Below the pieces are notes generated by a model. It made no database searches, was not told the origin of the DNA, and saw only the letters and a list, made by a program, of their open reading frames with translations. The position numbers and the translations under genes are program-made. DNA of 64,000 bases. Origin: Sphingobacteriales bacterium. Lineage in GTDB: Bacteria; Bacteroidota; Bacteroidia; Chitinophagales; JADIYW01. Below, piece after piece: positions 33,134 through 48,840 of the stretch (the stretch's first letter is position 1; each line of letters begins with the position of its first letter). Location: positions 590,185 to 654,184 of the forward strand of contig CP064984.1 in NCBI GenBank assembly GCA_016699615.1, given 5' to 3'.

Positions 33134-33658
33134 TTAATAATATGGTGCTAATAATACATAAACCAATACACCTGAAATTGCCACATATAACCAAAATGGA
33201 TAGGTGTATCTTGCCCACTTTTTATGTTGCACAAATTGATTTGTAAATGCAAAAGAGAATGTTTTTAAAACAAAAGGTAAAATAACAGCTGCTAAAATTA
33301 TATGTGTTATTAGTATAAAATAATAGATTGGTCTTATTATTCCTTGACCTAAAAATTTAGTATCTTCTGCCTTTAATGTATGATAAAATAAGTAGCTTAA
33401 TAAAAATAAGCACGACAACACAAGTGCTGATAACATAAATAATCTATGTATATTTTGCTTTTTGTATTTAATTGCAATCAATCCAAATATTAAACATAAA
33501 CTTGTGCCCGTATTTAATATTGCATTGAGCTTTGGAAAAATCATTAAATTTATACTGTGTTCAACATCTGGTGGTTGAACTTTTAGTAAAGTCATTACAA
33601 TAGCTGGAACAGCTACAGAAATAAATAAAATTATAATATTGATTTGCTTATTAGACAT
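33134..33658 (-). CDS. DUF420-family membrane protein (oxidase-cluster associated)
   Basis: 174 aa and 5 TM helices. The start overlaps the SCO stop. The position is typical of DUF420 genes. Confidence 0.7.
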   Translation of the reverse strand: MSNKQINIIILFISVAVPAIVMTLLKVQPPDVEHSINLMIFPKLNAILNTGTSLCLIFGLIAIKYKKQNIHRLFMLSALVLSCLFLLSYLFYHTLKAEDTKFLGQGIIRPIYYFILITHIILAAVILPFVLKTFSFAFTNQFVQHKKWARYTYPFWLYVAISGVLVYVLLAPYY

Positions 33659-34377
33659 TAATCTTTTTTCTCTTCTTTCATTGGCACAATATAGCTAACC
33701 AACAACAATTGAATGTCTTTTTTTAATTTTTCAATTGATTCTAATTTAGTGCCATCGTAAAATCCTCTAATTCTTTTTTCTTTATCAATCAACACTAGTT
33801 TTTCACTATGAATAAAATCATTTGAGCCACCATCACCTTGAACTGCTGTTACCAAATATCCATTTCTTGCAATTGCGTATAAATCTTTTTTATTTCCAGT
33901 AAGTAAATGCCAAACTTTACTATTTACATCTTTTTCAATAGCATATTTTTTTAGTTGTCCTACCGAATCTGTTTCTGGATCTACAGTGTGTGATAAAATT
34001 AGAACATCTTTGTCATTAAAGTATTCTTCTTGTATGATATGCAAATTATTAGTCATATCTATACAAATTGTAGGACAAGATGTGAAGAAGAAATCTGCCA
34101 CAACTACCTTATTCTTCATTATATCTTGGTTTATAGAATCACCATTTTGATTGATAAACGAAAATTTAGGAATTGTGTGATAAATTGTATCTATTACTAC
34201 ATCACCTTTTGAGTTGGTAGTTTCTTTTGGTAGTTTATTACCATAAATAGGAAGACATTTGTCAGTCTCTAATGTTTGTCTATTTGTATCTAAATATTTA
34301 AAAAAAATAAGAAATACAATGGGAACAAGTACTGCAACTATTAATGCAATTAGACAACCATTCTTTTGACTTTTCAT
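33658..34377 (-). CDS. SCO1/SenC-family copper chaperone
   Basis: Thioredoxin-fold CxxxC motif FFFTSCPTIC plus a downstream His (FIHSEK), with an N-terminal membrane anchor. Confidence 0.85.
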   Translation of the reverse strand: MKSQKNGCLIALIVAVLVPIVFLIFFKYLDTNRQTLETDKCLPIYGNKLPKETTNSKGDVVIDTIYHTIPKFSFINQNGDSINQDIMKNKVVVADFFFTSCPTICIDMTNNLHIIQEEYFNDKDVLILSHTVDPETDSVGQLKKYAIEKDVNSKVWHLLTGNKKDLYAIARNGYLVTAVQGDGGSNDFIHSEKLVLIDKEKRIRGFYDGTKLESIEKLKKDIQLLLVSYIVPMKEEKKD

Positions 34378-34379
34378 GT

Positions 34380-34715
34380 TTATTTACTCATTTCAACTAT
34401 TGCCTTCAACCATTCACTTCCATCCCACATAAATGCAATAATTCCCCAAATAAGAAATGATAATGGCAAGCCTAATGATAATGCAAATGCTCTTTTTTCA
34501 TATTTCACGTGCATAAATTCACCAATGATAAAATATGCTTTCCATACTGACATTATTACAAATAGAGAATTCAGTACAAATTTAGGCAATACACCACCTA
34601 AAGTAAGTGCAATAACTACTTCTACTACAGTAATGATTGCTAAATATAATGTGGCTCTCCATACAGCTTTAACTTGGCTTTGATATTGTTCTTCTGATAA
34701 ATGTTCTCCGCTCAT
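34380..34715 (-). CDS. cytochrome c oxidase subunit IV-family small membrane protein
   Basis: 111 aa and 3 TM helices, immediately downstream of the subunit III genes. Confidence 0.65.
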   Translation of the reverse strand: MSGEHLSEEQYQSQVKAVWRATLYLAIITVVEVVIALTLGGVLPKFVLNSLFVIMSVWKAYFIIGEFMHVKYEKRAFALSLGLPLSFLIWGIIAFMWDGSEWLKAIVEMSK

Positions 34716-34758
34716 ATATTATATTATTTATATATTATTAATTATAAAGATTTAATTA

Positions 34759-35610
34759 TTACATTAAGTAGAATGCTAAGAATACGAATACCCAAACTAA
34801 GTCTACAAAGTGCCAGTACAATCCTATTTTTTCAATCATTTCGTAATGACCTCTTCTTTCAAATGTACCATTAAGTGTACCAACTAGTGCGTACACATTT
34901 AAACAAACACCTGTAAAAACGTGAAAGCCGTGAAAGCCTGTAATTCCGAAGAATAATGCACCGAAAGTTGTTGGTCCACCAGTTTTTTGAATTCCATCAG
35001 CTATATTATAAAAATGTTGTTCTGTGCCATGTGCGTATAAATCTGTAAATTGTCCTTGTGCATTTAATGCAATTTCTCTCAATCCTGTTTCAGGATTGAC
35101 AACACTTTTAGCTAAATGCAATACACCTTCTGTATCTAAGATATATGGATTAAAGAATGGTCTTAATCCATTTTCAATTAAGTGAGCCCACTCCCATGCT
35201 TGGCATGCTAAGAATAATACACCACCTATTATTCCACCAATCATCCAAATAGCAACACCTCTTTTGTTCATTCTATGTCCTTCTTGTACTGCACGTACTA
35301 CAAACACAGAACTTGCAATTAGGATAGCCGTCATGATTGACACGAAACCCATTGGTACATTTGCATGACCCATTAATGGCATAGCATTAAATACATCATT
35401 TGGATTTGGCCACCAAGGTTGGCTAATTCTTATAGTAGCATATGCAATCAAAAATGCTGAGAATGTAAATGCATCTGACAATAAGAAATACCACATCATA
35501 GACTTACCATAACTAATATTCATGGGCGACTTCTCACCACCTTCGCCATTATCTGGTGTTGGCAATTGGTGCTCTTCATGTGTATCCTTAATTTCTAAAA
35601 CTTCTGACAT
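34759..35610 (-). CDS. heme-copper oxidase subunit III
   Basis: The C-terminal pattern GFHGFHVFTGV...YWHFVDLVWVFVF is diagnostic of subunit III. Confidence 0.85.
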   Translation of the reverse strand: MSEVLEIKDTHEEHQLPTPDNGEGGEKSPMNISYGKSMMWYFLLSDAFTFSAFLIAYATIRISQPWWPNPNDVFNAMPLMGHANVPMGFVSIMTAILIASSVFVVRAVQEGHRMNKRGVAIWMIGGIIGGVLFLACQAWEWAHLIENGLRPFFNPYILDTEGVLHLAKSVVNPETGLREIALNAQGQFTDLYAHGTEQHFYNIADGIQKTGGPTTFGALFFGITGFHGFHVFTGVCLNVYALVGTLNGTFERRGHYEMIEKIGLYWHFVDLVWVFVFLAFYLM

Positions 35611-35625
35611 ATTTATGATATTAAA

Positions 35626-36246
35626 TTATAAATTAAAATATAAAAATCCGAATAGATATAACCAAAGAATGCCCATAAAGTGCCAAAATAAACTTAATAG
35701 GTCTGTTCTTATACTTAATACGCCTTTCTCTGATAATTCTATTTTTTCTAATACTTCGTCTGATTTAATTTTTCTTAAAGCAATTAAACTTCTTACAAAT
35801 GCAACAGTAAGAAAAACTAATCCTGTTAATACATGCAGTGCATGCATCAATACTATAACAAATAAAAATTGTGGTGCTGGGTTTGGGTTACCGGCTGGAT
35901 AAAATCCTTGATTTGATAATATCATCCACCCATTATACTGAAAATAACAGAATAGAACGCCACAGATAATAGTTAATAATAATGTAAACGACATTAGTAT
36001 TTTATTTCCTTTTTTATTAGAAATATCTGCCACTAATAAGCATATACTACTAAACAAAATTATAAATGTAGAGATATTAAATTCATTAGGCAATGAGAAT
36101 CCTGTCCATGCTCCACCTGCGCCTTTCCTTACTAAGAATGCACTTGTAAAGCCAGCAAATACCATACAAGAAGAAACGATAAAGAGCCACATTGTAAATT
36201 TATGTGCTCCTTGATTCTTTTCTTGATATTTTAGCGTTAGACTCAT
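35626..36246 (-). CDS. heme-copper oxidase subunit III-family protein (second copy)
   Basis: HALHVLTGLVF...FWHFMGILWLYLF. 206 aa and 5 TM helices. Confidence 0.75.
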   Translation of the reverse strand: MSLTLKYQEKNQGAHKFTMWLFIVSSCMVFAGFTSAFLVRKGAGGAWTGFSLPNEFNISTFIILFSSICLLVADISNKKGNKILMSFTLLLTIICGVLFCYFQYNGWMILSNQGFYPAGNPNPAPQFLFVIVLMHALHVLTGLVFLTVAFVRSLIALRKIKSDEVLEKIELSEKGVLSIRTDLLSLFWHFMGILWLYLFGFLYFNL

Positions 36247-37142
36247 TATATTTTATCTAGGTTTAAAGCTATCAATACAATTGGTAAGTATAAAAAAGAA
36301 GCAAACATAAGTTTCTTTGCACTCTTGTCTGATGTATCAATAGATAATTGTATTGCTTGTAATAAGAACACAATGCCTGTGATTGTAATTATAACTAATG
36401 ATATAATTCCAGAAAGACCAAAGAAAAATGGTAAAGTTCCAACAATAATTAAAAGTATTAAATATGGAACGTTTAATAATGCTGTATTTCTATTTTTTAT
36501 GTTGTTTGGTAATAAATGAAATCCTGCTTTGTTGTAATCATCATTTAATAACCATGCAATAGACCAAAAATGTGGAATTTGCCAAAAAAACTGTATTGCA
36601 AATAATATAATACCACCTATTCCAATACTTCCTGTTGCTGCTGTCCAGCCAATAAGTAATGGCATAGAACCTGGAACTGCTCCAATAAATACAGCTACTG
36701 GACTAATTTTTTTGAATGGAGTGTATACAAATGCATAGCTAATTAATGACAACGCACCTAATAATCCTGATATTGGGTTAAAATAAAAACCTAAAATACC
36801 AATTCCAACGATTCCAAATAGTCCAGCAATTAAAGATGCATTTACTACGGAAATTTTTGCTTTTGGTAATGGCCTTTCCATTGTTCTATTCATCAACTTA
36901 TCAGTATCTTTTTCTAAAATTTGATTAATAATATTGGAAGATGCTGTTACTAAAAATCCTGCGATAGCTAATAGCAATATTGATGTTGATGATATGTTTT
37001 GATTTGCAAACAGATAAGACATAACAGCTGAGAAAACAACTAACAATGACAAACGCATTTTAGTCAATTGACTAAATACGGTGTATGTGTCAGTTAAAAC
37101 AGCAGCAATAGAACGATTGTATGTCTTAATATTATTGTTCAA
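36246..37142 (-). CDS. ctaB: protoheme IX farnesyltransferase (heme O synthase)
   Basis: UbiA-family motifs (NQILEKDTDKLMNRTMERPLP). 298 aa and 8-9 TM helices. Confidence 0.9.
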   Translation of the reverse strand: MNNNIKTYNRSIAAVLTDTYTVFSQLTKMRLSLLVVFSAVMSYLFANQNISSTSILLLAIAGFLVTASSNIINQILEKDTDKLMNRTMERPLPKAKISVVNASLIAGLFGIVGIGILGFYFNPISGLLGALSLISYAFVYTPFKKISPVAVFIGAVPGSMPLLIGWTAATGSIGIGGIILFAIQFFWQIPHFWSIAWLLNDDYNKAGFHLLPNNIKNRNTALLNVPYLILLIIVGTLPFFFGLSGIISLVIITITGIVFLLQAIQLSIDTSDKSAKKLMFASFLYLPIVLIALNLDKI

Positions 37143-37155
37143 AATTACAATTTAA

Positions 37156-38960
37156 TTAGTGATGAACTTTTTGATTTTGCTCTTCAGGAGTTAAAGGTGT
37201 AGTTTGTGGTATATAATCTTCTTGTGCACCTGGTTTGCTATAATCATATGGCCAACGATATACAGTTGGTAATTCTCCATCCCAGTTTCCATGAATTCCT
37301 TCAATTGGAGAAGTCCACTCTAAAGTATTAGCTTTCCAAGGATTTTGTTCAGATTTTCTACCTTTGTACATACTATAGAAGAAATTTACAATAAATAATA
37401 GCTGTGCCATAAATACTGCAATTGTTGCAATAGTCATTACAACATTCAAATCACTATATTGAGAAAATGATTCGAATTCGTTGAAATGATAATATCTTCT
37501 TGGAATACCCGCCAAACCCATAAAGTGCATTGGCCAAAATATTAGATAAGATCCAACGAAAGTAATAACGAAGTGTATATATGCTAAAGTTGAATTCATA
37601 TGTCTTCCAAACATTCTTGGAAACCAATGATAAACACCGGCAAACATACCAAAGAAAGCAGCAATACCCATAACTATATGAAAGTGTGCTACAACAAAGT
37701 ATGTATCGTGTAATCTAATATCAATAACTGAGTTTCCTAACCAAATACCAGTTAACCCACCAGAGATAAACATAGAAACAAATCCAATTGCAAATATAGA
37801 TGCTGGATTAATATGTATATTACCTTTCCATAATGTTGTTAACCAGTTAAATACTTTAACAGCAGAAGGAATTGCAATTAATAATGTAAAGAATGTAAAT
37901 ACACCACCTACAAATGGATTCATACCTGTCATGAACATGTGATGCGCCCAAACGATAAATCCTAGTACTGTAATACCTAATATTGAAAATATCATTGCTT
38001 TGTATCCAAAGATTGGTTTTCTAGAGTGTACTGCTAAAATTTCAGACACCATACCCATTGCTGGTAATATGATAATATATACTTCTGGGTGACCTAAGAA
38101 CCAGAATAAGTGTTGGAATAAAATTGGACTACCACCAGAATACGGAAGTGGATTACCACCTATTACTATATTAGATAAGTAAAAACTTGTACCTAAACTT
38201 CTATCAAAGATTAACAATACTGCTGCAGACAATAATACTGGGAATGATAACAAACCAATAATTGCAGTAAATAACAATGCCCATACAGTTAATGGCATTC
38301 TGTACATTGTCATTCCTTTTGTACGCATGTTTAGTATTGTAGAAATATAATTTAAACCACCCATTAATGTTGATGCAATAAATAATGCCATTGCGATTAA
38401 CCAAAGTGACATACCTGCTCCTGAACCAGGAGATGCCTGTGGTAATGCACTTAATGGTGGATATATTGTCCATCCAGCTGATGCTCCACCAGTTTTAACA
38501 AACATTGATAAGAACATTACAACACCTGCTAAAATAAAAAACCAAAAAGATAGTGCATTCATTAATGGTGAAGCCATATCTCTAGCACCAATTTGTATGG
38601 AATTAAGATATTAGCAAATGTACCACTCAAACTTGCTGTTAATACAAAAAATACCATGATAGTTCCATGCATTGTAATTAACATATAATAAGTTTCTGGA
38701 TTTAATTTACCATCTGAATACCAGTTACTGAATATTGATTCTAAAATTGGGAAATTAGCGTCTGGCCATGCTAATTGCATTCTAAATATAACTGACATAA
38801 AGCCACCTATAATTGCCCACACCATGCCTGCAATCAAGAATTGCTTGCCAATTGTTTTGTGATCTAAACTAAATATATACTTTGATAAGAATGTCTCCGT
38901 ATGATGATGACCATGGTCGTTATGTACATCAACATTATGTTCTAAAGCAGTCGTAGCCAT
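37156..38960 (-). pseudogene. ctaD: cytochrome c oxidase subunit I, split by a 1-nt frameshift as sequenced
   Basis: ORFs 38960->38562 and 38577->37156. The break falls inside the conserved ...NILIP-x-x-IGARDMA-x-P... motif. Adding one A to the AAA run (plus-strand T3 at 38592..38594) gives ANILIPYKIGARDMASPLMNALSFW. The downstream part carries the HPEVYI, WAHHMF and HFHIVM motifs. Confidence 0.9.
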
Positions 38961-38989: not shown

Positions 38990-40480
38990 TTATTTTTTAG
39001 TTACTCTAACATCAATCCTTCTGTTCTGTTGTCTTCCTTCATCTGTATCATTAGATGCTACTGGATGCTCTTGGCCATATCCTTCTGCTTTTAATCTATT
39101 TTTATCTACACCTAATTTTACTAATTCATTCATTACATTGTTTGCTCTATCAGATGATAATTTTAGATTATCTTCTGGTTTGCCAACATTGTCTGTGTAA
39201 CCACCAAGTTTTAACTCAACATTTGGGAATGCTTTTAATATTTCTGCTATGTTCTTTAATTGTACTTGAGATGATGATTTTAATGTAGCTTTTCCAGTTT
39301 CAAATAAAAGTCTATCAAAAGAAAACCATAAGTCTTTAGAAACTTGTTTATCAGAATTGATAAATTCTACTAATTTATTTTCAACACCACCAACATTTGC
39401 ACCAACAAGTTCAAAATTAGTTGGTAGTTTAAAACTAAAAGCACTGTTTGCGTCTGAAGTACCAGCATTTTCAGTTAATGCTGTTTCTGTATTTATTCCT
39501 TTTTCTGCTAAAGCAGGTTTTACTACTGTTTCATAGTATGATTTTTGTTCACTTAACCATGTTTTATATTCGCTTTCAGATACAATTCTTACTTTTTTCT
39601 TCATGTTATAATGCCCACTACCACAAAGTTGGTTACAAGTCATCACATAGTCAAACTTAGGATTATTAGTTTTTACTCTCATTTCTTCTGTGGTGATAGT
39701 TGGAGTGAACCAGAATTTTGTTGGAATACCTGGAACTGCATCCATCATTACTCTAAACTCAGGTAAATAAAAGTTATGTATTACATCAAGTGCTGCAATG
39801 TGAACTAAAACTGGTTTATTAACTGGAAGCACAATTTCATCTACAAGCATATCATCATGACTTGCTTTATTTCCCCAATTTACACCTAATTCATTATCAG
39901 GATTTACTAATGTAAAGTCTCTGATTCCTAATTTATTATCAGCACCAGGATATCTTAAAACCCAGCCAAATTGTTTTGCAGTTGCTTCAATTGTAATTGC
40001 TTCTGTTGGCGCTGGAGAAAAAATCTTTAACCATTTTTGTAAACCCATTCCAACTAATACTGTTAGTACAATTGCAGGAATAATCGTCCAAATAATTTCT
40101 AACTTATTATTATCTGAGAAAAATGTTGCTTTTCTATCTTTTCTATAGTGAAATTTATATACAAAATAGAATAATAAAAACTGTGTCACGACAAACACTA
40201 GTCCAGTAAATCCTAAAGTAATGTACATAATATCATCAATCCAAACACCTTGTTCAGATGCTGAAACTGGCAATAGTTTATCTGTACTTAATGCAGAAGC
40301 TACTACTGAGTATATTAAAGTTGCAAAACCAACAATAGACAAATACAACGCACCTTTTGAGTGATTATTCTTATCTCCATCTTTTTTGAATGTATCAATC
40401 AGTTCTGATGTTTTACTAATTTGCAAAACTACTACGAATAGTAATACAATGATTAATAGTGCTAATAATAAGGTTGACAT
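38990..40480 (-). CDS. coxB: cytochrome c oxidase subunit II (CuA) fused to a C-terminal OmpA-like peptidoglycan-binding domain
   Basis: CuA ligands DVIHNFYLPEF and CNQLCGSGHYNM (aa ~230-292). Residues ~385-496 are OmpA_C-like (FDRLLFETGKATL...GGYTDNVGKPEDNLKLSSDRANNV...NRRIDVRV). Confidence 0.85.
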   Translation of the reverse strand: MSTLLLALLIIVLLFVVVLQISKTSELIDTFKKDGDKNNHSKGALYLSIVGFATLIYSVVASALSTDKLLPVSASEQGVWIDDIMYITLGFTGLVFVVTQFLLFYFVYKFHYRKDRKATFFSDNNKLEIIWTIIPAIVLTVLVGMGLQKWLKIFSPAPTEAITIEATAKQFGWVLRYPGADNKLGIRDFTLVNPDNELGVNWGNKASHDDMLVDEIVLPVNKPVLVHIAALDVIHNFYLPEFRVMMDAVPGIPTKFWFTPTITTEEMRVKTNNPKFDYVMTCNQLCGSGHYNMKKKVRIVSESEYKTWLSEQKSYYETVVKPALAEKGINTETALTENAGTSDANSAFSFKLPTNFELVGANVGGVENKLVEFINSDKQVSKDLWFSFDRLLFETGKATLKSSSQVQLKNIAEILKAFPNVELKLGGYTDNVGKPEDNLKLSSDRANNVMNELVKLGVDKNRLKAEGYGQEHPVASNDTDEGRQQNRRIDVRVTKK

Positions 40481-40500: not shown

Positions 40501-41841
40501 TTAAATATGAAGATTATAACTTTCTTTTACGTATGGATGAGTAGAAGACTCTAGATCTGTAACTTTTGATAATGAGTACAAAGTAACAAATGCAAACAAA
40601 CTACCCATAATTAATAATGCGCCTAAACTAATTAATCCGAAGCCTCCATTTGGTACTAATGGTGGTCCAATCATTAAATAGAAATCCATCCAGTGACCTA
40701 ATATAATAACAACAGCCATAAACTTTGTAACATTTGGATTTCTTTTTGAGTTTCTTCTCATTAAGATAAAAAATGGTAAAATAAAGTTTATAACTAATGT
40801 AGCATGGAATAAAATTCCATAATTATCTAATTGTCTTCTATTAATAAAGAATGTAGTTTCTTCTGGTATGTTACCGTACCAAATTAACATATATTGAGCG
40901 AAAAACAAATAAGTCCAGAATACACTAATTGCAAACATAAGTTTTGCGATATCATGTGTGTGATTTTCATTTACTCTTGGAAGTAAGTTTTTAGATTTTA
41001 GATGATAGATTATTAATAGAACTATTGAGAACATTGTTACTGCAGCACTTGCCATAGTGTACCATGGAAATAATGTGCTATACCAATGTGGTTGAATTGA
41101 CATTGACCAGTCCCAAGTAGCAAATGTAGAGATAACGAATGCTATTAATACAATTGCAGTTGCAGAAATTGCTCTACTTTTAGAGAATAATTTCATAGAT
41201 GGATTTGAATCTTGTTGAGTTAAATTTTTCCACCATGCAAATGCAATACCACCAGCTGCTAAAACTTGAATAGCAAAGAAAGCCCAAAATCTTGGCATGT
41301 TTAGATAATCTCTTTTCATTGCTAAAATTGGATCAAACGTGTCAGAATCTTTAATGTATAAATATTCATGTGTCCATTCAAATAAATCATGTCTGAATAA
41401 CAAAAATGCTAAGAATAGAAATCCTAAGAATATAAATATGTTTCTAGATATTGCCAATGGAATTTTTTGAATTTGAATTTGCCATCCACCCCAAGCTATC
41501 GTAGCTGCAGATATGAAGAACAAAGCTGTCAATGCAATATAAAATCCGAATAAAAATAAAGAATAAAAGTTAGCTAATAACTTAGATTTTAAAGTAATTG
41601 GTTTTTCATGATGTCCACCCGAATGCGCATCTTGTCCATGTTCATCAGCGTGTACATTTTGAGCATGTGCATCAGTTGCATCATGATGTTCAGCTGCTGT
41701 TTGGTGAGTTCCATGTGCATCAGCAGATTTTGATGATTTTAATGCATTCATGCCAATTCCTAACAAAAGTATCAATACACCAATTACGAATGTAATTAAT
41801 ATTTTAGATTTCGTGCCAGATTCAAAAGTATATGTATTCAT
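40501..41841 (-). CDS. actF: Alternative Complex III subunit ActF (NrfD-like membrane subunit 2)
   Basis: 446 aa and ~10 TM helices, in the last position of the act cluster. It has a His-rich loop after TM1. Confidence 0.75.
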   Translation of the reverse strand: MNTYTFESGTKSKILITFVIGVLILLLGIGMNALKSSKSADAHGTHQTAAEHHDATDAHAQNVHADEHGQDAHSGGHHEKPITLKSKLLANFYSLFLFGFYIALTALFFISAATIAWGGWQIQIQKIPLAISRNIFIFLGFLFLAFLLFRHDLFEWTHEYLYIKDSDTFDPILAMKRDYLNMPRFWAFFAIQVLAAGGIAFAWWKNLTQQDSNPSMKLFSKSRAISATAIVLIAFVISTFATWDWSMSIQPHWYSTLFPWYTMASAAVTMFSIVLLIIYHLKSKNLLPRVNENHTHDIAKLMFAISVFWTYLFFAQYMLIWYGNIPEETTFFINRRQLDNYGILFHATLVINFILPFFILMRRNSKRNPNVTKFMAVVIILGHWMDFYLMIGPPLVPNGGFGLISLGALLIMGSLFAFVTLYSLSKVTDLESSTHPYVKESYNLHI

Positions 41842-41866
41842 TATAATTTAATAAATTATGATAAAA

Positions 41867-42469
41867 TTAATTAGTTTTAGTACTATCAGATGTTGTAGTA
41901 TTTGCTGATGCAGATGATGCACCTTGTAATGACTTAACATAAGAAATTACTAACCATCTTTCTTTGTGATTTAATTGAGAAGCATAAGAACCCATCAAAC
42001 CTTTGCCATACATTACAGAATGATACATTTGTCCTTCTGGTAAAGTTGCTAAAGCACCTGATAAATATGATGGTGGTGGTAGAAATTTACCAATTTGTAC
42101 TAAATGACCTTGTCCATCACCAGCTTCACCATGACAAATTGCACAGTTTATATTATATAATTTCTTTCCATTACCATCCATTTCTTCTTTAGTAAATGTA
42201 AAAGGGTTTTTGTTTGTAGCAGCTTGAGTATAACCTTCTGGTGTGTTTTCAAATGGATAAATATATTTTCCTAATGCAACACTACCTTTTGGTGGCAATT
42301 GATTTGTTTTGCCATCTTTAAATATTGGGTTTTCAGAACCTGCTTCGTAAGCTGTACTATGTACCATGTCAGGCATATACTCTCTACCTGGTTTTTTAGA
42401 GCTTCTAATGCAAGAAGTTAATGCCACAGCTAGGATAATAATTGATATGTATATATATTTATTTTTCAT
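41867..42469 (-). CDS. actE: Alternative Complex III subunit ActE (monoheme cytochrome c lipoprotein)
   Basis: Lipobox LTSC, a single CAICH heme motif, and a distal Met region (MYGKGLMGSY). Confidence 0.8.
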   Translation of the reverse strand: MKNKYIYISIIILAVALTSCIRSSKKPGREYMPDMVHSTAYEAGSENPIFKDGKTNQLPPKGSVALGKYIYPFENTPEGYTQAATNKNPFTFTKEEMDGNGKKLYNINCAICHGEAGDGQGHLVQIGKFLPPPSYLSGALATLPEGQMYHSVMYGKGLMGSYASQLNHKERWLVISYVKSLQGASSASANTTTSDSTKTN

Positions 42470-42471
42470 TT

Positions 42472-42993
42472 TTATATTTCTTTTTGATATACTTCAACAG
42501 CACCTTCGTTTTTTAATAAATCAGAAATAGCATTTGTATCTTGTGAGCCATCTATTTCGAAAGTAAGTGCAAACATATGATCTGTCGTTCTTTCATCTAT
42601 AATTGTTGGCTTTTTACCTGGATATAACTTACATAGGTAATAAAATGACACTACCATGCCTATTGCTGCAAATAATACTGTATGTTCAAATATAATTGGA
42701 ACGTAAGCCATTAAACCCCAATATGGTTTACCACCAAATATTGTTGGATAGTTAAAATAATTCACAAATGTAATCATAGAAAGTGCTACTGTCAGACCTG
42801 TTGCTCCAAAGAAAAATCCAGCAGTATGTAGCCTTGTCGGTTCTACATCCATTGCGTGCTCTATACCATGTACTGGGAATGGCGTAAAACAATCGGTAAT
42901 CTTGTACCCTTGTTTTCGTATGTTTTTGATTGCATGTAATAATACATCATCATCATCAAACATACCAACTAAATATTTTTTTGTATCGCTCAT
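42472..42993 (-). CDS. actD: Alternative Complex III subunit ActD (DUF3341)
   Basis: 173 aa: a soluble N-terminal domain followed by two TM helices, positioned between actC and actE. Confidence 0.8.
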   Translation of the reverse strand: MSDTKKYLVGMFDDDDVLLHAIKNIRKQGYKITDCFTPFPVHGIEHAMDVEPTRLHTAGFFFGATGLTVALSMITFVNYFNYPTIFGGKPYWGLMAYVPIIFEHTVLFAAIGMVVSFYYLCKLYPGKKPTIIDERTTDHMFALTFEIDGSQDTNAISDLLKNEGAVEVYQKEI

Positions 42994-43013
42994 AATTAAA
43001 AAGCTATAATAAT

Positions 43014-44459
43014 TTATTTATATTCTAACAATTCTTGTTCATTAACTTGTTTATATACTTCTTGTTCTTTTACCTCTTCAAGTTGTCCTTTTCTATATTG
43101 ATTCCCTGAGATTTTAAGTATAGATTTTATTTCTGCAATAGCAACAACTGGGAAGAATCTACAGAACATTAAGAATAATGTCATAAATATACCCATTGTA
43201 CCAATGTAAATTCCCATTTCTATCCATGTTGGAGAATAATACAACCAACTTGATGGTAAATAATCTCTATGTAATGATATAACTATAATCACAAATCGTT
43301 CAAACCACATACCTATGTTTACTAGTATTGACATAACAAATGTAACTTTAATACTTCTTCTGAATTTTCTAAACCAGAATACTTGTGGAGAAACTAGGTT
43401 ACAGAACATCATTGTCCAATATGCCCATGCATATGTAGAACCGAACGCTCTTGTTGCAAATTGGAATTGCTCATATTGATTAGAAGAATACCATGCTGTA
43501 AATAACTCTGTTAGATATGCAATACCTACCATTGTACCTGTAAGCAATAATATTTTATTCATTGATTCTATATGTGCTAAAGTGATATAATCTTCTAATT
43601 TCATGATATATCTAGCAATAATCATCAATGTTAATACCATTGCGAAGCCAGAGAAGATAGCACCTGCAACGAAATATGGAGGCAAAATTGTTGTATGCCA
43701 TCCTGGAATTACTGAAGTTGCGAAGTCAAAAGATACGATTGTATGTACTGATAATACTAATGGAGTAGATAAACCAGCTAAGATTAATGAAAGTGATTCC
43801 CATCTTTCCCAATGTTTTACACTACCTACCCATCCAAAACTTAATAAATTATAGAAATTCCATCTTCCTTTTGTTTTTGAACGGTCTCTTATTGTTGCGA
43901 AATCTGGAACTAAACCAGTATACCAGAATAATAATGAAACTGTGAAATAAGTAGAGATTGCAAATACGTCCCATAATAATGGAGAAGTGAAGTTTACCCA
44001 AAGTGGTCCTCTTGTATTTGGATATGGGAAGATAAACATTGCATCCCAAACTCTACCCATGTGAAATACTGGGAATAAACCAGCACAAACTACGGCAAAT
44101 ATTGTCATCGCTTCTGCAGCTCTATTCACACCTGTACGCCATTTTTGACGAAATAATAATAAGATAGCAGAGATTAGTGTACCTGCGTGACCAATACCAA
44201 TCCACCAAACGAAGTTTGTGATATCCCATGCCCAACCTACTGTTTTATTTGCACCCCAAGAACCTATACCAAAAACTACTTCCCATGCAATACAAAATAT
44301 GCCGAATGTAGCGACGATTGCAGAAACTGTAGTCCAAAATATCCATCTTGGTTGCAATTGACCTGTTGTTGAACGAACTATATCTGTGGTAATATCTTTA
44401 TAAGTCTTATTACCTGTAATTAATGGTTCTCTAAGTGGTGATTCAAAATGACTTGCCAT
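43014..44459 (-). CDS. actC: Alternative Complex III subunit ActC (NrfD/PsrC-like quinol-interacting membrane subunit)
   Basis: 481 aa and 10 TM helices. It is NrfD-like and follows actB. Confidence 0.85.
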   Translation of the reverse strand: MASHFESPLREPLITGNKTYKDITTDIVRSTTGQLQPRWIFWTTVSAIVATFGIFCIAWEVVFGIGSWGANKTVGWAWDITNFVWWIGIGHAGTLISAILLLFRQKWRTGVNRAAEAMTIFAVVCAGLFPVFHMGRVWDAMFIFPYPNTRGPLWVNFTSPLLWDVFAISTYFTVSLLFWYTGLVPDFATIRDRSKTKGRWNFYNLLSFGWVGSVKHWERWESLSLILAGLSTPLVLSVHTIVSFDFATSVIPGWHTTILPPYFVAGAIFSGFAMVLTLMIIARYIMKLEDYITLAHIESMNKILLLTGTMVGIAYLTELFTAWYSSNQYEQFQFATRAFGSTYAWAYWTMMFCNLVSPQVFWFRKFRRSIKVTFVMSILVNIGMWFERFVIIVISLHRDYLPSSWLYYSPTWIEMGIYIGTMGIFMTLFLMFCRFFPVVAIAEIKSILKISGNQYRKGQLEEVKEQEVYKQVNEQELLEYK

Positions 44460-44489
44460 ATTAGCTTTCTTATATAATTTTTATAAATA

Positions 44490-47400
44490 TTATCCTTCTT
44501 GTTCTATAAATCCTCTTTGAGGAGCTTCGTCTTTATTTCTAATTTTTGTTTGATATCCAACGTGTGCTAAGAAATGTTGTTCTTCAAATAAGAAATAATT
44601 TCTACCTGAATCAAATATCTTAGATACTTGGCTATCATTATCATTCATATCTCCAAAAACAATAGCATTTGTAGAACAAGCTGTTTGACATGCTGTTTTT
44701 ATCTCTCCATCTGCTAATTTTCTGTTCTCTTTTTTAGCATTTAATTTTCCTTCTTGTATTCTTTGAGTACAGAAGCTACATTTTTCAATTACACCTCTTG
44801 TTCTTGCTACTACATCTGGATTAAGTATCATTCTTGTTAAAGAATCAAACATATAACCTTTAGTTTCAGCACCACCCCAACCTGGTGTACCATCATTAAA
44901 CTCACCAAACATATCATTACCTTGATAGTCTAACCAGTTAAATCTTCTTACTTTGAATGGGCAGTTATTTGCACAATACCTTGTACCAATACATCTATTG
45001 TATGCCATTTGGTTAACACCTTCTGTACTGTGGTTTGTTGCATTTACTGGACAAACATTTTCACATGGTGCATTATCGCAATGTTGACACATCATTGGTT
45101 GGAAAGAAACATCTGGATTGTCTGGATTCCCATTATAGTATCTATCAATTCTTAACCAATGCATTTCTTGACTACGGAATACTTGTCTTCTACCTACAAC
45201 TGGTACGTTATTTTCAATATTACATGCAACAACACAAGCTCCACATCCAGTACATGCATTCATATCTACTGACATTCCCCAGTGATGTCCTGGGAATTTA
45301 GGTGTAGGATACATAGTAACCATATGTTTTAATATGTCTGCTCTATCCTCATTACCTGCATGATCATCTTTAATATAAGAACTTAAGTTAGTTTCTTTCA
45401 CTACCATCCCACGATATTTTAGTGGTTTGCCTGGTAATGAAACATCTTCCATTAATGAATGGTATGTTTGATTTAAACCTAGATTATATGTTTTTCCTGT
45501 TAATTCAAAAGTTGCGTTATCTAATGAATATTTGTTGTCTTTTAATACTCCATAAACATTTGCACCAACTCCTGAACCTACATTTCCTGCTTTCTCTCTT
45601 CCATATCCTAGTGCTATTGCAAGTGTATTTTGTGCTTGACCAAATTGAACAACCACAGGTAATTCAAATGATTTTCCGCTTACAGTAACTTTTGCTACAG
45701 GAACCTTTTTGTCTGAAGGCATTGCATCAATACCTTTTTCTTTTGCAAAAGTATAAGGTACTAAAATATAATTATCCCAAGTTGCTTTAGAAATTGGGTC
45801 TGGCATTTCTTGTAAGAATGGATTGTTTGCTAATTTTCCATCTCCAATTCCCACTTTCTCATAGAAAATAACTTCTAATCCTTTTGATGATTGTGGTGCA
45901 GTTATTGAAATAGTAGATGATAATGATGAACCACCAACACCTGTTGTTTTATCTACAAAACCTTTTTGTAATGCTGATGCATAATCTGTACCTGCTATAC
46001 TTGCTATTTCGCTTTGTACTAATGTGTCTATTGTTGAGTTATCACCCGACCAAGTTAATAAAGAAGCTGCTTCTTGTCTTGTATCAAATAATGTTGTAAT
46101 AGTTGGTTGTACAAAACCAAATTGACCATTTTTAGGCTCAACAACATCCCAAGACTCAAGAATATGTGAGTTTGGTGCTATATATGTACAATATTGTGCA
46201 GATTCATCAGCTCTATCTGCTGTTGAAACAGAAAGTGTTGCTTTTTGTAATGCATTTTTAAATACATCACCACTTGCAGTATCGTAAACTGGATTTGCTC
46301 CAAGAAGTATAATTCCTGAGTAAGCACCTGCTTTTAAATCAGCAACTAATGTTTTTAATTCTTCGTCATTACCTTGTTTGTAATTTAAGGTATTATTTGT
46401 GTCTATTGTAGTTCCAAAATTAGTTAAAGAAGCATTAATTCCATTAATTAATGATTGGATTTCTGCATCATTAGTTCCAGAAACAACAATACTTTTTCCT
46501 TTATTTGCTAATAATTCTTTGGCAACTTTATCAACTCCTGCATCAACCTCTTTGTTAATACTTTTTGCAGCTGCAACGCTTCCGCCAATTTTGTTATATA
46601 GATTAATTAATGCTTGTTTTTCTTCAGAAGGTTTAATTGGGTATTTGTAGTCTGCACTTGCTCCAGTAATTGTCATTGTTGATTGGAACTGGAAATGTTT
46701 AGACATTTTAGGATTACTTTTTGAAGGAACTCTATTAACTACATATTTTGATGAGTTTTCAACTGGGTTCATCCAAGTACCTAAGAAATCACAATTAAAA
46801 CCTACAATTACATCTGCTTTATCAAATTGATATGTTGGAATAATTCCACCAGATGCTTTTCTAATTGCATATTGAGATATTGCGTCGTAAGCAACTACAG
46901 TAGTATTAGGATATGTAGTTTTAAATTTTTCAATAGCTTTTTTAGTAATTGTAGATAATACTGTATTGGTAACTATAACTACTTTTTCATTACTATTTTT
47001 AATTTTATCTAATTTCTCAACAATTTCTGCATCAAATTCTTTCCACCCAGCTTTCTCATTTTTTCTTAATGGATTGTGTAATCTAGTTACATCATACAAT
47101 CCAAGTAACATTGCTTGAGCTCTTGCATTTGTACCACCATTTGCTGTTGAGCTAGGATTACCTTCTACTTTAATAGGTCTTCCTTCTCTATTTTTAACCA
47201 AAACACTGCAAAATTCACCTGAATCGAAATATGATGTAGCAAAATACTCTGCAACACCTGGAACTATTTCAGGCATTTGATTTCTTAAATCAAATGTATA
47301 TGGAATTGCATGTTTTACTGGAATTTGACATGCTGATGCAACAGCAGCTATAGAAACACTAAAGCCCATTGCTTTAAGAAAATCTCTCCTACTGTGTTCA

Positions 47401-47516
47401 TTTCCTGTTTCTTCCACATTGTCTTCAACATTATTGAACTCATTGGTCACTTTTTCTATATAAGCTGGAGTATTGTTTAATTCCTCTAAGCTAGTCCAAT
47501 ATTTTTTATTACTCAT
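44490..47516 (-). CDS. actB: Alternative Complex III subunit ActB (molybdopterin-like + 4Fe-4S ferredoxin fusion)
   Basis: Tat signal SRRDFLKAMG and a large MopB-like N-terminal part. The C-terminal part has several Cys clusters (CTGCGACVVAC, CQHCDNAPC, CIGTRYCANNC, CSFC). Confidence 0.9.
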   Translation of the reverse strand: MSNKKYWTSLEELNNTPAYIEKVTNEFNNVEDNVEETGNEHSRRDFLKAMGFSVSIAAVASACQIPVKHAIPYTFDLRNQMPEIVPGVAEYFATSYFDSGEFCSVLVKNREGRPIKVEGNPSSTANGGTNARAQAMLLGLYDVTRLHNPLRKNEKAGWKEFDAEIVEKLDKIKNSNEKVVIVTNTVLSTITKKAIEKFKTTYPNTTVVAYDAISQYAIRKASGGIIPTYQFDKADVIVGFNCDFLGTWMNPVENSSKYVVNRVPSKSNPKMSKHFQFQSTMTITGASADYKYPIKPSEEKQALINLYNKIGGSVAAAKSINKEVDAGVDKVAKELLANKGKSIVVSGTNDAEIQSLINGINASLTNFGTTIDTNNTLNYKQGNDEELKTLVADLKAGAYSGIILLGANPVYDTASGDVFKNALQKATLSVSTADRADESAQYCTYIAPNSHILESWDVVEPKNGQFGFVQPTITTLFDTRQEAASLLTWSGDNSTIDTLVQSEIASIAGTDYASALQKGFVDKTTGVGGSSLSSTISITAPQSSKGLEVIFYEKVGIGDGKLANNPFLQEMPDPISKATWDNYILVPYTFAKEKGIDAMPSDKKVPVAKVTVSGKSFELPVVVQFGQAQNTLAIALGYGREKAGNVGSGVGANVYGVLKDNKYSLDNATFELTGKTYNLGLNQTYHSLMEDVSLPGKPLKYRGMVVKETNLSSYIKDDHAGNEDRADILKHMVTMYPTPKFPGHHWGMSVDMNACTGCGACVVACNIENNVPVVGRRQVFRSQEMHWLRIDRYYNGNPDNPDVSFQPMMCQHCDNAPCENVCPVNATNHSTEGVNQMAYNRCIGTRYCANNCPFKVRRFNWLDYQGNDMFGEFNDGTPGWGGAETKGYMFDSLTRMILNPDVVARTRGVIEKCSFCTQRIQEGKLNAKKENRKLADGEIKTACQTACSTNAIVFGDMNDNDSQVSKIFDSGRNYFLFEEQHFLAHVGYQTKIRNKDEAPQRGFIEQEG

Positions 47517-47547
47517 TTATATTGATATTAATAGCGTTCTAAAATAA

Positions 47548-48840
47548 TTAATAATGACATTTTTGGCATTCAGTTCCACCTATATCTTCTACAGTTACAT
47601 CTGCACGTTTGCCTTTTTTAATCTCATCGTGATATTTTTCAAATACTGAATAATAGTTATTATCAGCGAATTGTACTTTTGTTTCTCTGTGGCAATTGAT
47701 ACACCATCCCATTGATAATGGCGCAAATTGTTCTACAACTTCCATTTCTTCAATCTTTCCATGGCAAGTTTGACATTCAATTTTACCTACTTTCACGTGT
47801 TGAGAATGGTTAAAATATACGTGGTCAGGTAGGTTGTGAATTTTTACCCATTCTATATTTTTAGGTGCTCTCACAAATTTACCTTCATCTGGATCCCAAC
47901 CTGAATATGCATATATTTTCTTAATTTCATCTTTTCCGTATTTTGGTCCTTCTTGAACATATTTATGACAGTTCATACATATTTGTGTTCCTGGAATACT
48001 TGCATGTTTACTTTTTTCAACTCCTGTGTGGCAATATTGACATTCAATTTTATTTTGGCCAACGTGAAGTGCATGTGAGAACCTAATTGGTTGTTCTGGT
48101 GCGTATCCTTGAGAACGACCTAAATCAATAGCACCTTTTGCAATATTAAAAATCAATAAGATTACTACTATTATGATAGCAATTGAAGTTAATTTTTTGA
48201 TTGCTGGTTTGAAAGAAGTTTCTGATACTGTTTCACCTTTTGATTCACTTACAACTCTATTAAGTTTATTTGTTATATTGAACAATACAACTGCTAATAC
48301 TAGTAGTAATACAAATAATCCTATTAATATTACATTTGAGTTTGATTTTGTTTCTGTTGTTCCTGCAGTATCGCCTGTTGCTGTAGTTGCTGCTCCGCCA
48401 GCTGGTGCGCCTGGATCTATACCTGCTTGTTTTCCTTTAACATAAATAAATATATTTTTTATCTGGTCATCAGATAAAGTTGGGAAAGCTTGCATTACGC
48501 TCTTAGCATTGTCATTAAATATCTTATTTGCATAAGGATGTCCAGATTTGATTAATGATTGTGAGTTTTTTACCCAAGCAATTAAGTTTTCTTCGGTATC
48601 CCATCTGCTCCAAACATCAGCTAATGCTGGACCAATCACTTTTCTATCTACTGCGTGGCAAGCTGTACAGTTAGCTTTAAATACATCCATTCCTTCCTTT
48701 GCTTTCTCCATCATAGCTGCATCATCAGCTTTAAGGTCTGGCACTGTTACAGCAGCTTTTAAGCTAATATTTACAGAAAAGAATAATGCAATTAATACTA
48801 CAAAGCTGTAAATTTTTTGAATATTATTTTTAAGCATCAC
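47548..48840 (-). CDS. actA: Alternative Complex III subunit ActA (class-I cytochrome c domain + TM + pentaheme domain)
   Basis: Six CxxCH motifs: CTACH (N-terminal class-I domain), then CQYCH, CMNCH, CQTCH, CINCH, CQKCH. There is a signal peptide and a central TM helix. Confidence 0.85.
   Translation of the reverse strand: MMLKNNIQKIYSFVVLIALFFSVNISLKAAVTVPDLKADDAAMMEKAKEGMDVFKANCTACHAVDRKVIGPALADVWSRWDTEENLIAWVKNSQSLIKSGHPYANKIFNDNAKSVMQAFPTLSDDQIKNIFIYVKGKQAGIDPGAPAGGAATTATGDTAGTTETKSNSNVILIGLFVLLLVLAVVLFNITNKLNRVVSESKGETVSETSFKPAIKKLTSIAIIIVVILLIFNIAKGAIDLGRSQGYAPEQPIRFSHALHVGQNKIECQYCHTGVEKSKHASIPGTQICMNCHKYVQEGPKYGKDEIKKIYAYSGWDPDEGKFVRAPKNIEWVKIHNLPDHVYFNHSQHVKVGKIECQTCHGKIEEMEVVEQFAPLSMGWCINCHRETKVQFADNNYYSVFEKYHDEIKKGKRADVTVEDIGGTECQKCHY

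Follow-up and report, generated by a model that had tools for sequence, protein, structure and literature searches.

A stretch of 64,000 nucleotides from a Sphingobacteriales bacterium (assembly GCA_016699615.1, contig CP064984.1, positions 590,185 to 654,184 of the forward strand; hereafter the window, whose own numbering is used throughout) carries a gene, coxB-ompA, in which subunit II of an aa3-type terminal oxidase (CoxB) is fused to a C-terminal cassette of the OmpA-like, peptidoglycan-binding type. CoxB-OmpA is a genuine and evolutionarily maintained fusion, spread over two lineages of Bacteroidota. The best-supported reading of its role, and a probable one in our opinion, is that of a periplasmic tether of the oxidase and its associated alternative complex III (ACIII) to the sacculus, as the original prediction had proposed on the first inspection of the sequence. 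This reading is based on the topology of CoxB and on the intact peptidoglycan-binding residues of the appended domain.

Architecture of the fused protein

The gene occupies positions 38990..40480 of the minus strand, on which all window features mentioned below are located. It consists of one open reading frame (ORF) of 496 amino acids plus stop codon, uninterrupted as originally described and found intact in independent assemblies. Pfam searches recognized three domains in its product. The first, the two-helix hairpin COX2_TM (PF02790), covers residues 72-142 (40055..40267; E 3.5e-11, 43.6 bits for a cut-off of 22.8), corresponds to helices 76-111 and 126-153 of an AlphaFold2 (AF2) model and includes a Lys/Arg-rich loop (residues 109-126) assigned to the cytoplasmic side from its charge. 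The second, the periplasmic cupredoxin domain COX2 (PF00116), follows at residues 163-294 (39599..39994; E 3.1e-9, 37.2 bits for a cut-off of 22). It harbors the CuA motif H235 ... C282-N-Q-L-C286-G-S-G-H290-Y-N-M293, whose ligands H235, C282, C286, H290 and M293 were invariant in an alignment of 25 fused homologues. Foldseek comparison of the model with solved CoxB chains from R. sphaeroides and P. denitrificans gave E values of about 5e-14, and the CoxB equivalog TIGR02866 (NCBIfam) matched residues 80-309 with 132.7 bits, under its trusted cut-off of 147.7. With its transmembrane (TM) hairpin, complete CuA ligand set, matching fold and location beside coxA in the operon, this part of the protein is an oxidase subunit II.

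The earlier description of residues 1 to about 320 as a normal CoxB was accurate for the hairpin, the cupredoxin domain and the CuA motif. It did not cover the N-terminus, where residues 1-66 (40283..40480) form an extension that contributes two further hydrophobic helices (about residues 1-29 and 43-66 by hydropathy, 2-32 and 42-64 in the AF2 model). Four TM helices are predicted in CoxB, the two additional ones preceding the canonical hairpin; this extension was found in all aligned homologues, fused or not, and its sequence is poorly conserved. At the other end, alignments and comparison with an unfused relative (P0021, on contig L081) delimited conserved C-terminal CoxB helices (residues 302-322; 39515..39577) that end in KSYYETVVKP. 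They are the last segment common to fused and unfused CoxB, and the breakpoint of the indel separating both forms is located there.

Residues 322-496 and the stop codon correspond to the span 38990-39517, which comprises a linker, a pre-domain and the OmpA domain. What had been taken for a single linker of about 60 amino acids turned out to be two distinct elements, namely a hypervariable, low-complexity and flexible linker of 24 residues (323-346; 39443..39514), recognized by its identity and length variation, substitution pattern and low model confidence, and a conserved pre-domain of 45 residues (347-391; 39308..39442) with the pattern G.E.KL..FI....VSKDLWFSFDRL. Alignments and substitution ratios delimited the latter, and its homologues gave weak matches to PF05359 (DUF748) at this place. 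The OmpA_C-like domain itself (residues 392-496; 38993..39307) had been correctly identified: Pfam family PF00691 matched residues 392-487 over profile positions 1-98 of 98 (E 1.8e-22, 79.9 bits for a cut-off of 27.2), and the peptides quoted in its support, FDRLLFETGKATL, LGGYTDNVGKPEDNLKLSSDRANNV and EGRQQNRRIDVRV, are all present. Residues 390-495 also matched many OmpA_C-type NCBIfam families (YiaD, YfiB, MotB, TssL and Pal).

The AF2 model (mean predicted local distance difference test score (pLDDT) 79.9, predicted template modelling score (pTM) 0.54, inter-domain placement not confident) is composed of four N-terminal helices, the cupredoxin, helices in residues 302-341, a disordered segment at 337-348 (pLDDT <50) and a confident C-terminal α/β domain. 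The latter, with pLDDT values of about 77-93, has the alpha/beta sandwich fold of solved OmpA_C structures, and Foldseek matched it with OprF 5u1h (TMt 0.82) and with Capnocytophaga OmpA 5wtp (root-mean-square deviation 1.7 Å, 104 columns). Sequence matches in the PDB included OmpA_C domains and, for the CoxB part, chain 2yev_B of a caa3 oxidase, in agreement with the earlier remark that the module stands in the C-terminal position of the caa3 cytochrome c domain. A cytochrome c domain is absent from CoxB-OmpA, because residues 282 and 286 are the only cysteines among its 496 amino acids and no CxxCH haem motif exists there; no Pfam match to such a domain was obtained either. The c-type cytochrome domains of the system were located by Pfam on ActA and ActE, as had been expected.

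Reality and distribution of the fusion

The exact 496-aa protein is deposited as NCBI QQR98530.1, 'MAG: OmpA family protein [Sphingobacteriales bacterium]' (MAG, metagenome-assembled genome), from a 2.99-Mb contig, and four sources (NCBI, JGI, Logan and ENA) together provided 8 contigs encoding the identical protein. The same ORF is present on L083, a Logan contig of independent origin that is 99.2% identical over 3.4 kb. In the protein search, many full-length fused homologues were obtained, all three Pfam domains being present in these proteins of 490-540 aa; their identity ranged from 99% to about 41%, and fused homologues down to about 37% were found overall. Among 79 GTDB species-representative loci having a CuA-bearing CoxB, 57 contained the fusion; these were mostly from Saprospiraceae/Lewinellaceae, with several Chitinophagales MAGs in addition. 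Among the fused loci were those of three cultured carriers, Membranihabitans marinus CZ-AZ5 (WP_236969597.1), Neolewinella antarctica DSM 105096 (WP_168035938.1) and Lewinella sp. W8 (WP_253932125.1), and the domains of their proteins were confirmed.

These data bear on the possibility that the fusion is an artefact of assembly or annotation, or a recent loss of a stop codon that joined coxB to an adjacent ompA in this assembly only. At least one probable indel error does exist in the window, namely the coxA frameshift described below. However, the identical protein on 8 contigs, the same ORF on the 99.2%-identical independent contig and the fused orthologues in 57 species loci all contradict this possibility, as do the composition of unfused loci and the purifying selection on the module (see the next two sections). 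An error shared by all those assemblies, which differ in technology and sample, is implausible, and we consider this explanation extremely improbable.

The three cultured-strain proteins are labelled 'OmpA family protein' in RefSeq, probably because the TIGR02866 score (132.7 for a cut-off of 147.7) does not allow the NCBI Prokaryotic Genome Annotation Pipeline (PGAP) to name them as CoxB. The same two circumstances, the annotated name and the sub-threshold score, can lead metabolic reconstructions of Saprospiraceae and Chitinophagales to report wrongly that oxidase subunit II is missing. A full-text literature search, which did not cover all journals, found no published description of CoxB-OmpA, nor of the related proteins with DUF937 or pyrophosphatase N-termini presented below. 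Mentions of OmpA in a report on the Flavobacterium johnsoniae enzymes (PMC8552683) were considered and rejected as a description of the fusion, as they refer to the ompA promoter. In line with the original statement on this point, the CoxB-OmpA architecture is apparently undescribed in the literature, though deposited in databases under a misleading name.

Comparison with unfused loci

Fused (L001, L013, L083 and L089) and unfused (L003, L081 and L082) relatives had the order actC-D-E-F, coxB, coxA, ctaB in common, and the act-cox order matched that of the window in L001, L003, L013, L083 and L089. In fused and unfused relatives alike, coxA started 20-30 nt past coxB. A separate ompA gene after coxB, which the original prediction had suggested looking for in relatives, was absent from all unfused relatives examined: tblastn searches with both module types (see below) found no OmpA module in 22 unfused loci (about ±6 kb) nor in L081 and L082, and no such gene appeared after coxB in the ORF lists of L001 and L003. 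The 64-kb window likewise contains no second OmpA-like ORF.

The closest unfused relative (P0021/L081) has a CoxB core 87% identical to that of the window protein, and the DNA is 78-82% identical on both sides of a clean indel. Positions 38995..39502 of the window (508 nt) are replaced there by 67 nt encoding a short low-complexity tail, and this missing segment nearly coincides with the span 38990-39517. Unfused CoxBs generally end in a tail of 25-45 amino acids rich in Ala, Pro, Thr and Lys; the cassette was therefore gained by, or deleted from, a pre-existing disordered tail. The loss of a stop codon between coxB and a neighbouring ompA, put forward earlier as a possible origin, was rejected, since the unfused relatives have no ompA nearby and coxA comes directly after coxB. 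Neither the identical ORF of independent assemblies nor the conservation of fusions to about 37-41% identity agrees with such an event.

Conservation and history of the module

Regional statistics were obtained from the alignment of the 25 fused proteins, with identities expressed relative to the window protein. The ratio of nonsynonymous to synonymous substitution rates (dN/dS) was calculated between the window gene and its 84%-identical homologue in L089, a 99%-identical relative differing at too few sites; as dS (0.7-1.6) is near saturation, the dN/dS values that follow are only indicative. The CoxB core (residues 70-322) was 42-90% identical, with a dN/dS of 0.037. Identity fell to 0-50% in the linker (residues 323-346), whose length varied from 9 to 42 aa and whose dN/dS was 0.50. 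It amounted to 29-77% in the pre-domain (residues 347-391; dN/dS 0.24), as measured in fusions of the window type. For the OmpA_C domain (residues 392-496; dN/dS 0.081), identities of 60-89% were observed, or 45-49% with the Saprospiraceae type of module, and in distant fused homologues this domain was more conserved than the catalytic core. By these ratios and identities, the OmpA module appears to be under purifying selection.

Trees were built by neighbour-joining from BLOSUM distances, without support values, so that counts of gains and losses derived from them are rough. In the CoxB tree, which comprised 198 cores, proteins with and without the fusion were interleaved within the Chitinophagales-like clade of the window, and the Saprospiraceae clade was nearly all fused; Fitch parsimony on this tree gave about 15 changes between the two states, a rough figure for the same reason. 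The tree of the modules was deeply split into two types. Modules of the Saprospiraceae type lack the pre-domain and are joined by a different, helical linker, and the window type grouped with free-standing or otherwise-anchored cassettes. The existence of two module types suggests that at least two independent fusions took place, both at the same end of CoxB, with recurring losses or replacements in addition. That at least two module lineages were fused to CoxB points to recurrent selection for this arrangement.

Peptidoglycan binding and the tether

In the complex of PorE with peptidoglycan, meso-diaminopimelate (DAP) is contacted by the side chains of D576, N584 and R591, which are conserved in AbOmpA, Pal and PomB (PMC7192894). 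The window protein has a putative DAP-binding triad, D430 (39191-39193), N438 (39167-39169) and R445 (39146-39148), spaced exactly as in PorE (8 and 7 residues). Among 101 fused CoxBs comprising both module types, these three residues were kept in 101, 100 and 101 proteins, respectively. Regarding topology, the cupredoxin domain of CoxB is to our knowledge periplasmic in all solved oxidases. Hydropathy revealed no hydrophobic segment after residue 151 except a strand within the cupredoxin core, so that the cassette, which follows this domain with no further TM segment in the hydropathy profile or the AF2 model, is predicted to be periplasmic as well. Altogether, the sequence data support well the view that the cassette would bind peptidoglycan.

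The following arrangement can be proposed. The flexible linker after the CuA cupredoxin would carry the two-part cassette, pre-domain and OmpA_C-like domain, and the intact Asp/Asn/Arg pocket would most likely bind the stem peptide containing meso-DAP in a non-covalent manner, as in OmpA, Pal, MotB and PorE. ACIII and the aa3 oxidase have been isolated as a supercomplex from Flavobacterium johnsoniae (PMC8552683); such a supercomplex is assumed by homology in the organism of the window. If it forms there, the whole path from menaquinol to O2 could be held on the sacculus through the association with ACIII. Tethering would restrict the lateral diffusion of the enzyme and fix its position and its distance from the wall.

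It is also conceivable that the OmpA-like domain no longer binds peptidoglycan and acts instead as a protein-protein module, for oxidase dimerisation or docking of ACIII, or that it is removed by proteolysis. OmpA_C domains often dimerise, and the AF2 model (pTM 0.54) places none of the domains confidently relative to one another, two points that may be counted in favor of this possibility. A third one comes from the PsaB subunit of Gloeobacter violaceus: a C-terminal OmpA-like extension of 155 aa, suggested to attach photosystem I to peptidoglycan, is not visible in the solved structure (PMC11565984). However, the three DAP-contacting side chains are kept in essentially every fused protein, the 55-69% identity to free-standing cassettes of other phyla argues for an unchanged ligand, and a hypervariable, disordered linker suits a tether more than a docking module of fixed geometry. 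We consider this explanation, whether as a protein-protein module or as a domain removed by proteolysis, very unlikely.

The cassette on other hosts

With the 150-aa cassette as query, 618 cluster representatives were retrieved at E < 1e-30. Most often, the host was a protein of 400-490 aa that begins with a DUF937 domain (PF06078), such as P0246, P0250, P0251 and P0254. These DUF937-OmpA proteins constitute a large uncharacterised family with the layout DUF937, a variable middle region, the pre-domain and OmpA_C. Pfam did not detect DUF937 at the N-terminus of the window protein, where CoxB is found. Small proteins from several phyla, with a single TM helix or a lipoprotein-like N-terminus, were other common hosts. 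The window cassette (query positions 2-150) was 55-69% identical to the C-termini of DUF937-OmpA proteins, and its pre-domain, G.E..L..FI....VDK..WF.FDRL.FETG, is contiguous with OmpA_C at the extreme C-terminus as in the DUF937-type cassette. The pre-domain accompanies the OmpA domain in the DUF937-OmpA proteins, in the small membrane-anchored OmpA proteins and in a third group of hosts, the membrane pyrophosphatases (PPases).

Several cassette fragments bore the JGI name 'K(+)-stimulated pyrophosphate-energized sodium pump', and the same cassette was indeed found, after a variable linker, at the end of Bacteroidota membrane PPases. Ten metagenomic contigs (L090-L098 and L101; up to 2.36 Mb) contained uninterrupted PPase-OmpA ORFs of 876-923 aa, for example at L096:2681-5413, L090:2669-5320 and L098:2672-5314. 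All three of the ORFs checked with Pfam matched the H_PPase profile from 1 to 645 of 645 and then OmpA, and the cassette of L090 was 58% identical to that of the window over all 150 residues. In structures of membrane PPases, the C-terminus faces the non-cytoplasmic side. On sequence grounds, the cassette would serve proteins of the inner membrane as a portable anchor to peptidoglycan, attached at their C-terminus, and two of its hosts are primary ion pumps.

Some PPase-OmpA genes were interrupted. Three of them, on long contigs (L086:2661-5425, L087:1687-4344 and L088:1651-4368), are disrupted within the N-terminal half, a frameshift of 1 nt being located near L086:3943. An apparent split at profile position 389 was observed in these three and in all short matches of the PPase search. 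A conserved split or programmed frameshift at this position was considered and rejected in view of the ten uninterrupted ORFs; the broken genes most likely owe their selection to the word-index protein search, as short products were all that it retrieved. In the metagenomic contig L085 (1150-1227), the PPase ORF ends in a TAG and a cassette ORF without a signal peptide of its own follows in frame 25 codons downstream. This TAG could be a sequencing error, the mark of a pseudogene or a site of read-through.

The host range of the cassette raises another possible explanation, in which the cassette likewise binds peptidoglycan but the envelope is the beneficiary: the cassette would require an inner-membrane anchor with a periplasmic end, and CoxB, like the PPase or the DUF937 proteins, would merely be an abundant and convenient one for a wall tether or spacer, useful to bacteria without Braun lipoprotein, and oxidase function would be unaffected. 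In favor of this view, the cassette occurs on at least three unrelated anchors, and most often on membrane-anchored proteins that have no relation to respiration (DUF937-OmpA and small TM-anchored forms); moreover, CoxB has frequently gained or lost it through clean indels, which speaks for interchangeable anchors. However, both enzyme hosts found so far are primary ion pumps, which is unexpected for randomly chosen anchors, bearing in mind that the sampling was not unbiased. Moreover, at least two independent fusions at the same position of CoxB and the near-fixation in Saprospiraceae suggest a benefit specific to the host protein. We consider this explanation rather unlikely, and keep the tethering of the ACIII-aa3 oxidase as the preferred one.

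Several points nevertheless weigh against the latter and should be considered together. The distribution of the fusion is patchy, and a relative with an 87%-identical core cleanly lacks the module; the interleaving of fused and unfused states and the clean indel imply that the oxidase can do without the module, which may bring a minor benefit or one limited to certain conditions. The near-saturation of dS affects the substitution ratios taken as a sign of selection. We only infer that the module binds peptidoglycan, that the mature protein retains it and that it brings a physiological benefit, and in some bacteria (Rhodobacter) CoxB undergoes processing of its C-terminal tail. The coxA frameshift in the same operon is probably an assembly indel error, but could be the sign of a real pseudogene. 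Finally, the Gloeobacter PsaB precedent is itself unproven.

Genomic context

The genes for ACIII, actABCDEF (40501..48840), are located directly upstream of coxB-coxA on the same strand. Pfam identified actA, a multihaem cytochrome c (47548-48840), actB, of the Fe-S/molybdopterin type (44490-47516), actC, of the NrfD type (43014-44459), actD (42472-42993; family ActD) and actE, a monohaem cytochrome c (41867-42469); actF (40501-41841) had no Pfam match and was assigned by its position only. Directly downstream of coxB-ompA, coxA (subunit I; 37156..38960) was recognized from the ORF list and by comparison with L083. Further oxidase genes extend over 33134..37142 and were all assigned by Pfam: a haem O synthase of the UbiA family (36246-37142), two COX3-like genes (35626-36246 and 34759-35610), COX4_pro (34380-34715), SCO1/SenC (33658-34377) and DUF420 (33134-33658). 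The genes that come after coxA thereby include ctaB, coxC and coxD. The two COX3-like ORFs (206 and 283 aa; 34759-36246) are consecutive and both match the C-terminal part of COX3.

The window coxA is split into ORFs of 132 and 473 aa by a 1-nt deletion at about 38597/38598, as judged against L083, where the gene is intact and encodes 601 aa. The lesion is a single missing T (CCATTACAA becomes CCA-TACAA) and represents the sole gap in 3422 nt of alignment with this 99.2%-identical contig.

No Rfam family and no tRNA gene reached the threshold anywhere in the 64-kb window. In a scan for promoters and terminators, the terminator-like matches within the operon were on the wrong strand. The G+C content of the window (1-64000) was about 23-34% throughout.

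Comparison with known systems

Respiratory complexes are generally regarded as proteins that diffuse freely in the inner membrane. A built-in, selected wall anchor on a terminal oxidase would show deliberate immobilisation or positioning of the respiratory supercomplex by some bacteria, and the three cultivable carriers make the question of the tether directly testable. A broader proposal can be made, that Bacteroidota use one mobile cassette to pin primary ion pumps (ACIII-aa3 and membrane PPase) to the sacculus, giving fixed sites of proton or sodium motive force; we hold it to be decidedly unlikely at this stage. If true, such sites could be placed in a defined relation to wall-anchored consumers, like the GldLM gliding motors of the type IX secretion system (T9SS), or along filamentous cells, and this pinning would add to bacterial bioenergetics a level of spatial organisation that has so far gone unrecognised.

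Subunit II of caa3 oxidases (Thermus thermophilus 2YEV chain B, Rhodothermus marinus caa3) likewise consists of an A-type CoxB with an extra C-terminal periplasmic domain. In that case, the appended domain is a cytochrome c with a CxxCH motif which feeds electrons to CuA, whereas CoxB-OmpA ends in a non-redox cassette. Gloeobacter PsaB is also a bioenergetic core subunit of the cytoplasmic membrane with a C-terminal OmpA-like domain (about 110-155 aa), and its PDB chain 7f4v_aB (7F4V) matched the window OmpA domain. It belongs, however, to another complex, another phylum and another module lineage, and occurs in Gloeobacter only, whereas dozens of species were found to have the CoxB fusion.

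MotB/PomB, TssL/TagL, YiaD and YfiB share with CoxB-OmpA the domain family, the binding residues and the principle of an inner-membrane anchor, and MotB/PomB, TssL/TagL and YiaD can be seen as its functional analogues; YiaD, MotB, TssL and YfiB were among the NCBIfam and PDB matches. These proteins are dedicated anchors of motors or secretion systems that must resist force, whereas in CoxB-OmpA the anchor is part of a redox subunit that is itself catalytic and is not known to play a mechanical role. The DUF937-OmpA and small TM-anchored OmpA family proteins contain the whole 150-aa cassette including the pre-domain (55-69% identity), always at the C-terminus, and are the source family of the window cassette; they differ in their N-terminus, which is DUF937, a single TM helix or a lipoprotein signal in place of CoxB. 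PPase-OmpA proteins, finally, display the same cassette on another primary ion pump, with a host enzyme different from CoxB.

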